From a virus (taxonomy: Duplodnaviria; Heunggongvirae; Uroviricota; Caudoviricetes): a stretch of 8,189 nt of DNA. Shown here in pieces: positions 971-3,900 of this stretch. The notes under the pieces are model-generated. The model did not search any database, had not been told where the DNA came from, and was given only the letters and a program-made list of their open reading frames with translations. Each line of letters starts with the position of its first letter. Within the stretch, counting starts at the first letter, position 1. Both the position numbers and the translations under genes were made by a program. The stretch lies in the IMG/VR virus record IMGVR_UViG_2529292921_000014. One strand, 5' to 3'.

Positions 971-3900
971 ATGGGCAAAGGAAGCAGTAAGGGGCATACC
1001 CCGCGCGAAGCGAAGGACAACCTGAAGTCCACGCAACTGCTGAGTGTGATTGATGCCATCAGCGAAGGGCCGATTGACGGTCCGGTGGATGGATTAAAAA
1101 GCGTGCTGCTGAACAGTACGCCGGTGCTGGACAGTGAGGGGAATACCAATATCTCCGGTGTCACGGTGGTGTTCCGGGCCGGTGAGCAGGAGCAGACTCC
1201 GCCGGAGGGATTTGAATCCTCCGGCTCCGAGACGGTGCTGGGTACGGAAGTGAAATACGACACGCCGATCACCCGGACCATCACGTCGGCAAACATTGAC
1301 CGACTGCGTTTTACCTTCGGTGTGCAGGCACTGGTGGAAACCACCTCAAAGGGGGACAGGAATCCGTCGGAAGTCCGCCTGCTGGTTCAGATACAACGTA
1401 ACGGTGGCTGGGTGACGGAAAAAGACATCACCATTAAAGGCAAAACCACCTCACAGTATCTGGCATCGGTGGTGGTGGGTAACCTGCCGCCGCGCCCGTT
1501 CAATATCCGGATGCGCAGGATGACGCCGGACAGCACCACAGACCAGCTGCAGAACAAAACGCTCTGGTCGTCATACACCGAAATCATCGATGTGAAACAG
1601 TGCTACCCGAACACGGCACTGGTCGGCGTACAGGTGGATTCGGAGCAGTTCGGCAGCCAGCAGGTGAGCCGTAATTATCATCTTCGCGGGCGCATTCTGC
1701 AGGTGCCGTCGAACTATAACCCGCAGACGCGACAATACAGCGGTATCTGGGACGGAACGTTAAAACCGGCATACAGCAACAACATGGCCTGGTGTCTGTG
1801 GGATATGCTTACCCATCCGCGCTACGGCATGGGGAAACGTCTTGGTGCGGCGGATGTGGATAAATGGGCGCTGTATGTCATCGGCCAGTACTGCGACCAG
1901 TCAGTGCCGGACGGCTTTGGCGGCACGGAGCCGCGCATCACCTGTAATGCGTACCTGACCACACAGCGCAAGGCGTGGGATGTGCTCAGTGATTTCTGCT
2001 CGGCGATGCGCTGTATGCCGGTATGGAACGGGCAAACGCTGACGTTCGTGCAGGACCGACCGTCGGATAAGGTGTGGACCTATAACCGCAGTAATGTGGT
2101 GATGCCGGATGATGGCGCGCCGTTCCGCTACAGCTTCAGCGCCCTGAAGGACCGCCATAATGCCGTTGAGGTGAACTGGATTGACCCGAACAACGGCTGG
2201 GAGACGGCAACAGAGCTTGTGGAGGACACGCAGGCCATTGCCCGTTACGGTCGTAACGTCACGAAGATGGATGCCTTTGGTCTGTACCAGTCGGGGGCAG
2301 GCACACCGCGCCGGGCTGTGGCTGATTAAAACAGAACTGCTGGAAACGCAGACCGTGGACTTCAGCGTGGGTGCTGAAGGGCTTCGCCATGTACCGGGCG
2401 ATGCCATTGAAATCTGTGATGATGACTATGCCGGTATCAGCATCGGCGGGCGCGTGCTGGCGGTAAACAGCCAGACCCGGACGCTGACGCTCGACCGTGA
2501 AATCACGCTGCCATCCTCCGGTACCACGCTGATAAGCCAGGTTGACGGAAGTGGCAATCCGGTCAGCGTGGAGGTCCAGTCCGTCACCGACGGCGTGAAG
2601 GTAAAAGTGAGCCGTGTTCCTGACGGTGTTGCTGAATACAGCGTATGGGGGCTGAAGCTGCCGACGCTGCGCCAGCGACTGTTCCGCTGCGTGAGTATCC
2701 GTGAGAACGACGACGGCACGTATGCCATCACCGCCGTGCAGCATGTGCCGGAAAAAGAGGCCATCGTGGATAACGGGGCGCACTTTGACGGCGAACAGAG
2801 TGGCACGGTGAACGGTGTCACGCCGCCAGCAGTGCAGCACCTGACCGCAGAAGTCACCGCAGACAGCGGGGAATACCAGGTGCTGGCGCGCTGGGACACG
2901 CCGAAGGTGGTGAAGGGGGGAGCTTTATGCTTCGCCTGACCGTGGCAGCGGATGACGGCAGTGAGCGGCTGGTCAGCACGGCCCGGACGACGGAAACCAC
3001 ATACCGCTTCAGGCAGCTGGCGTTGGGGCGTTACACGCTGACAGTCCGGGCGGTAAATGCCCGGGGACAGCAGGGCGATCCGGCGTCGGTATCGTTCCGG
3101 ATTGCCGCACCGGCAGCGCCGTCACAGATTGAGCTGACGCCGGGCTATTTTCAGATAACCGCCACGCCGCATCTTGCGGTTTATGATCCGACGGTACAGT
3201 TTGAATTCTGGTTTTCTGAAACGAAGATTTCAGATGTCTCACAGGTGGACAAATCTGCCCGCTATCTTGGTACGGCACTGTACTGGGTAGCCTCCGGCCA
3301 GAATATTAAGCCGGGCCATGATTATTACTTTTATGTTCGCAGTGTGAATACCGTTGGCAAATCGGCATTCGTGGAGGCTGTCGGCCAGCCGGGTAATAAT
3401 CCTGAAGAGTATCTCAATTTTTTTGAAGGGAAAATAAACAGCACCCTGCTGGGGCAGGAGCTGAATGATCGTATTAATGCCTCTGCATTGCGCAGTGAAG
3501 TTGAGCAACTGGAGGATGAGGTCAATCAGCGACTGGAGAGTGATATTGCCGGGGTGACCCAAAAAATCGGGGAAACTGAAAACAGCCTCACGCAGCTGGT
3601 TGCTAAAAAAAATGATGAGCAGTCACTGGCCATATCCCAGGTGAGTCAGAAAGTGGACAACGTCAGTAGCGAACTCACGCAAACGGTCAGTCAGAGTAAT
3701 GAGGAGAATGCACGCCAGATTGCGCAGGTTCGTCAGTATGTGGATGAAAAAAGCAGTGAAATCATCTCGACGACAGACAAAAAACTGGGCGAGCAGGAAG
3801 CAACAATCCAGCAGATACAAAAGGTTCAGACAGACACCAGTAATAACCTGAACAGTATGTGGGCCGTGAAACTGCAGCAGATGCAGGATGGTCGCCTTTA

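Follow-up and report, generated by a model that had tools for sequence, protein, structure and literature searches.

A tail gene of a lambda-like prophage that is distributed over three open reading frames, with its two frame switches cancelling each other exactly, raises the question of whether the two frameshifts compensate each other, whether one or both of them are errors in the sequence, or whether the gene has simply decayed. The stretch of DNA analysed here, 8189 bp in length and called the window below, is the whole of contig AIEW01000008.1 in the assembly GCA_000249075.2 of Escherichia coli DEC1B. The contig carries, in this order, gene K (truncated at its 5' end by the contig start), I, J and lom. 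The Pfam domains run in the same order, with NlpC_P60 (K) and Lambda_tail_I before J and Ail_Lom after it, which is the position of J in a lambdoid tail module, and the annotated relatives have the same gene order as the window. The window most likely belongs to a decaying lambda-like prophage of the enteropathogenic strain DEC1B. It is noted that the sequence is a draft of 2012, presumably obtained with 454 and/or Illumina, and that the contig is short (8.2 kb) and comes from a multi-copy lambdoid region.

The features of J that enter the argument are as follows.

971..4687, plus strand: pseudogene of gpJ (lambda-type tail tip / host specificity protein J), 3717 nt
971-2329, frame 2: J ORF 1, 452 aa
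2181-2939, frame 3: J ORF 2, from the ORF map
2927-4687, frame 2: J ORF 3, 586 aa
2281..2281, plus strand: inserted T, giving a +1 frameshift, in the non-homopolymer context TTTGG[T]CTGTACC
2327..2329, plus strand: TAA stop, 15 codons past the insertion, at which the 452-aa N-terminal fragment terminates
2915..2920, plus strand: run of six G (G6), one nucleotide short, giving a -1 frameshift
2937..2939, plus strand: TGA at which, by translation, a G6-only ancestor without T2281 would end, with a 655-aa product

The assignment to gpJ is based on the length, the intact gpJ of E. coli A25 being just as long, on the repaired translation, on the Pfam domains and on an orthologue in the EPEC strain E2348/69 that is annotated as 'frameshifted'. 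FNIII-A_GpJ and Phage-tail_3 lie in the first fragment, Ig_J in the second, and Ig_J, Ig_J_second, Phage_Tail_Tip and Ig_GpJ_C in the third, the domain set of the gpJ / TipJ family being complete when the three fragments are pooled. Both the ORF map and the distribution of the Pfam domains across the fragments thus confirm the three-ORF layout that was given in a preliminary description made from the letters alone. Its statement that translation from 971 ends at 2329 after 452 residues also holds, and the tail tip is not makeable from this gene. The alignment with intact J genes that it had suggested was made with MAFFT, with the gpJ of A25 (3717 nt), phage cdtI and E2348/69 set against the window J, and it shows two window indels inside the gene, 636 nt apart. 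One is an extra T, which had been suspected near 2280 and is now placed at 2281, and the other is a deficit of a single base in the G run 2915-2920. Because the indels are called by direct comparison with homologues, chance is not at issue in their recognition. When T2281 is deleted and one G is added, a single ORF of 3717 nt is obtained, with 1238 codons and the terminal stop only, the product of which matches the A25 gpJ at 1216 of 1239 aligned positions (98% identical); to the J genes of phages the window J is 93-95% identical in nucleotide sequence. As the sequence stands, the +1 shift at 2281 leads to the TAA at 2327, and the -1 shift at 2915-2920 would lead to the TGA at 2937, as in a frameshifted pseudogene. 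We are fairly confident that J in the prophage remnant of DEC1B is simply a dead gene, hit by two one-base lesions that have nothing to do with each other, the one inherited and the other private to the draft contig.

We consider the downstream lesion first. The J pseudogene of E2348/69 (NC_011601.1) carries the same G6 in the alignment, and of the 40 differences that separate it from the window J, none falls in 2814-3604 around the G run. Queried with a 40-mer designed to seed only across the run, the 5,426 complete E. coli genomes yielded 4 records with G6, each a separate assembly of the E2348/69 lineage, and in IMG/VR G6 is present in two contigs, L129 and L130. The contig L130 (IMGVR_UViG_2529293038_000020) equals the window across 2577-4455, including G6, and is without T2281, while the G6 of L129 sits in a more divergent background (94.9% identity), so that some G6 copies may be recurrent rather than shared by descent. 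Moreover, the protein P0034, from the sister strain DEC1C and also from NCTC genomes, has its start at ATG 2927 and matches the window without a difference over 422 aa (100% identity); since this start is the gene call that is expected for a J broken at the G run, we infer that G6 is present in these strains as well. It is also noted that P0034 is identical to the window up to about 4192 and then continues in an unrelated tail of 17 residues, suggesting a further lesion (an indel or an insertion) near 4192, and that L130 diverges from the window over 665-1441, in the I gene and the 5' part of J, and ends within a copy of ISCro1.

From the comparison of these sequences, G6, the downstream lesion, is a real one that was inherited, and it appears to be the older of the two. 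Being common to four E2348/69 assemblies and to L130, it is neither an assembly artefact nor a very recent event, and the very recent two-step event that had been offered before as one of two explanations is not supported. The G6 calls of L130 and of the DEC drafts may not be fully independent of each other, as the sequencing platform is possibly common to them; the E2348/69 assemblies are independent of these drafts. It might still be supposed that both indels are artefacts and that J is intact and functional in DEC1B, as the exact cancelling of the indels and the full length of the repaired ORF would suggest. If this were true, however, it would be difficult to understand why G6 occurs with identical flanks in four independent assemblies, with gpJ annotated there as 'frameshifted', and also in L130, and why the gene calls of DEC1C and the NCTC genomes begin at the position expected of a J that is interrupted at the G run. 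In addition, the adjacent lom is cut by an IS, so that the prophage is degenerate anyway. We thus regard an intact J in DEC1B as highly improbable.

The alleles at the G-run site indicate how the base may have been lost. The commonest in-frame allele is GGGGGTG (Nissle 1917; at least 120 IMG/VR contigs), and another of the commonest is GGGCGTG, both of which interrupt the run. An uninterrupted run of seven G (G7; AAG GGG GGG AGC) is found in 14 complete-genome records, as counted with an 80-nt query, and in 12 IMG/VR contigs, and it is the allele of the intact haplotypes nearest to the window, which show 6-7 mismatches per 451 nt versus 9-10 for GGGGGTG. The earlier derivation of G6 from a sequence of the type AAG GGG GTG AGC is therefore right in that one base is missing and in that this is the commonest allele, but the nearest intact relatives carry G7, and slippage from G7 to G6 is accordingly the most economical origin. 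Alternatively, G6 could be a GGGGGTG that has lost its T, the haplotype argument for G7 resting on a margin of about 3 mismatches. With G7 as the starting allele, the base in the run 2915-2920 would have been lost first, most likely by slippage, before the window copy, the E2348/69 orthologue and L130 split from one another, and G6 by itself would have truncated J at 2939 (655 aa). The allele GGGGTG, one G below the common GGGGGTG, is seen in two IMG/VR J copies (L036 and one other), so that base loss from the G run is not confined to a single allele background. In this clade of J, 1-nt losses are likely to recur at the G7 tract.

The occurrence of G7, G6 and GGGGTG variants at the site in different prophages, together with the proneness of G7 to slippage, could also be read as a phase-variable switch by which J is turned on and off. 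Seven G are short for a contingency tract. The tract length does vary between backgrounds, but G6 is constant in the four E2348/69-lineage assemblies, and the commonest alleles, GGGGGTG and GGGCGTG, break up the run. Furthermore, the additional lesions that have piled up in the G6 copies, as described below, argue for permanent loss of the gene rather than for reversible switching. It is thus very improbable that the run acts as such a switch, and we retain the reading of an inherited loss.

We now turn to the upstream lesion. The 40-mer centred on T2281 has no match in the 5,426 complete E. coli genomes, and a 35-mer across it, designed to allow two nearby SNPs, has none in the GTDB species representatives, in the metagenome contigs or in IMG/VR, where the control 34-mer lacking the T matches at least 120 contigs. 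The T is likewise in none of the aligned J genes. By exact-protein look-up, including the Logan assemblies of public runs, each of the three J fragment proteins (EHU18487-EHU18489, the second and third tagged ECDEC1B_0643 and ECDEC1B_0644) is found on the NCBI contig only; because the 586-aa fragment, which depends on G6, is also absent from Logan, the DEC1B reads are apparently not represented there, and Logan is no independent test of T2281. Judged by this distribution, T2281 is private to the contig and would be the later lesion. The insertion cuts the product back to 452 aa, with the stop at 2327, and would be either a neutral mutation, because the gene was already dead, or a consensus error in the draft.

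The T adjoins a mosaic stretch of J, the main part of which is as follows.

2404..2813, plus strand: recombinant patch, from the alignment, with 33 of the 40 differences from the E2348/69 orthologue

Over 2577-2830 the window agrees in every base with a second J allele, which is found in the 0.76-Mb prophage of E2348/69 and in a second copy in A25, and in 2404-2576 there are six differences from L130, two of them private (2404C and 2539A), reflecting a further mix of alleles. The mosaic in 2404-2830 indicates either that lambdoid prophages resident in one cell have undergone gene conversion or that the consensus is chimeric. The only other private difference of the window is a G-to-T substitution at position 373, just 3' of K, which is in none of the other fetched loci that cover the site; besides T2281, the window thus has private bases at 373, 2404 and 2539 only. 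Among the differences between the window and E2348/69 there are several G-to-T changes in G-rich contexts, most of which are common to other alleles, and the private ones are too few to establish a signature of sequencing error.

If T2281 were a sequencing or assembly consensus error, the true gene would have the inherited G6 only and would still be a pseudogene, with a product of 655 aa instead of 452 aa. The absence of the T from every collection that was searched and the restriction of the 452-aa product to one contig are in line with such an error. So is the position on a short contig from a multi-copy lambdoid region, where the reads of paralogous J copies can mix, the more so as at least two J alleles are mixed in the window beside T2281. 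The same contig also has a homopolymer deficit in the tnpA of ISCro1 (A6 versus A7) and the three private substitutions. On the other hand, T2281 lies outside a homopolymer and is therefore not a classic error of pyrosequencing or nanopore sequencing; one private indel and three private substitutions in 4.9 kb are normal for real mutation in a gene that is already dead; and the A6 variant of the IS, being present in 10 complete-genome records too, need not be an error. We thus hold a consensus error to be quite possible though somewhat the less probable of two plausible accounts, and a real mutation to be slightly favoured over a consensus of mixed paralogues, a leaning that is drawn from the assembled sequence. 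The suggestion of a sequencing or assembly error at one or both sites accordingly survives for T2281 and falls for G6.

With the two lesions characterised, the question of whether they compensate each other can be answered. For a true intragenic suppressor, that is, a second frameshift selected to restore J, or for ribosomal frameshifting at both sites, several features are suitable: the lesions are opposite in sign (+1 and -1), the downstream frame is restored with a total length equal to that of the intact gene (3717 nt), and G GGG GGA (2915-2921) formally fits the -1 slippery heptamer X XXY YYZ in frame 3, which is the frame of J on arrival there. However, the frame that is read between the two sites (frame 2), instead of being free of stops, contains 13 of them, the TAA at 2327, the first, being 46 nt past the insertion and 12 more following up to 2786. 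With these intervening stops the ribosome never gets to the G run in any frame, and full-length J is impossible. Moreover, the interval 2281-2327 shows no apparent +1 recoding signal. The sites also lack the conservation among homologues that would be expected of programmed frameshifting, the T being present in no other sequence and G6 being rare in comparison with the in-frame alleles. Functional compensation or recoding is thus rejected on account of the intervening stops, its probability being next to nil, and in the functional sense the frame restoration described before does not exist.

Two relatives with G6 show what second lesions in this gene look like. One of them concerns the following run.

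3605..3612, plus strand: run of eight A (A8), intact in the window but shortened to A7 in the E2348/69 orthologue, as the second frameshift of that gene

Thus E2348/69 has a -1 lesion in the A run 3605-3612, and L130 has a -1 lesion at the equivalent of 1168, a private 1-nt deletion changing GGTGGTG to GGT-GTG. Neither of them cancels G6, from which it follows that indels accrue at random in G6 copies. That the lesions in the window sum to zero is a coincidence without consequence for the protein. Once a gene is dead, the sign of a further small indel is a matter of chance, and roughly one in two or three such indels will cancel the first. The argument that exact restoration of the frame downstream would be unexpected in a dead gene therefore fails, all the more as G6 is the older, shared lesion. 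That argument had taken the events in the wrong order, since the downstream lesion appears to be the earlier and the upstream T, which is private, the later.

A more speculative proposal may be mentioned here. A V-to-G substitution could have created G7 in one clade of J and thereby a hot spot of mutation at which the tail tip gene is inactivated again and again, and G6, as G GGG GGA, might leak some full-length J via -1 ribosomal or transcriptional slippage. If the leaky G6 were true, the gene would not be dead but would switch the infectivity of the prophage in a leaky or reversible way; the T2281 of DEC1B, if real, would abolish this in that strain. We attach very little probability to this proposal, and a dead J is retained as the preferred reading.

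The gene next to J is also disrupted, as seen from the following features.

4757..4943, plus strand: 5' part of lom, cut by the IS, from Pfam and reconstruction
4936-4943 and 7642-7649: 8-bp target duplication GGACACGC, flanking ISCro1
4944..7641, plus strand: complete ISCro1 of the IS66 family (tnpA-tnpB-tnpC), inserted in lom and 99.85% identical over 2.7 kb to the copy in E. coli MS 85-1
5287..5292, plus strand: run of six A (A6) in tnpA of ISCro1, from the alignment, the reference having A7, giving ORFs 4997-5338 and 5338-5673
7650..8062, plus strand: 3' part of lom, from Pfam and reconstruction

The element has the tnpA-tnpB-tnpC arrangement with DDE_Tnp_IS66, terminal inverted repeats starting with GTAA and the 8-bp duplication, as is proper for ISCro1 as an IS66 element, and when the IS and one duplicate are removed in silico, a Lom ORF of 199 aa is rebuilt. 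The A6 variant of tnpA is present in 10 of the 1,632 E. coli records with this stretch of the IS, a count of exact matches only, since the 40-mer used was off-centre and also matched A7 copies with a gap. It is either a recurrent homopolymer variant or a recurrent error.

Taken together, the inherited frameshift in J, the private second indel, the IS-cut lom and the one-base deficit in the tnpA of the IS are ordinary prophage decay. The biological weight of the observation is little, because frameshifted J genes are commonplace in the defective lambdoid prophages of pathogenic E. coli and the E2348/69 copy is already annotated so. For the annotation, the three 'genes' ECDEC1B_0642 to 0644 should be merged as one pseudogene. 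An important point to note is that, for any net-zero pair of indels, the intervening stops and the question of which lesion is shared by relatives should be checked before compensation is called.

Finally, we compare the locus with known systems. The J pseudogene of E2348/69 (E2348C_RS28990, in the prophage at 1.078-1.082 Mb of NC_011601.1) shares with the window the K-I-J-lom context and G6 and is nearly identical to it in J outside 2404-2813, but it is without T2281 and without the patch at 2404-2813, has A7 in place of A8 at 3605-3612 and has an intact lom. The intact gpJ of E. coli A25 (WP_201488479.1) agrees with the repaired J of the window in length (3717 nt), in protein sequence (98% identity) and in the domain set; by contrast, it carries G7, has no T insertion and is a single ORF. 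The window copy of ISCro1 shares with the reference the tnpA-tnpB-tnpC arrangement and the 8-bp duplication and differs from it by A6 in place of A7, by which tnpA is split. The intragenic suppressors of Crick and Brenner are similar to the J pair in that a +1 and a -1 lie in one gene and the length is restored. Their suppression, however, needs a shifted stretch that is free of stops, while in the window J this stretch has 13 stops, and nothing is suppressed.
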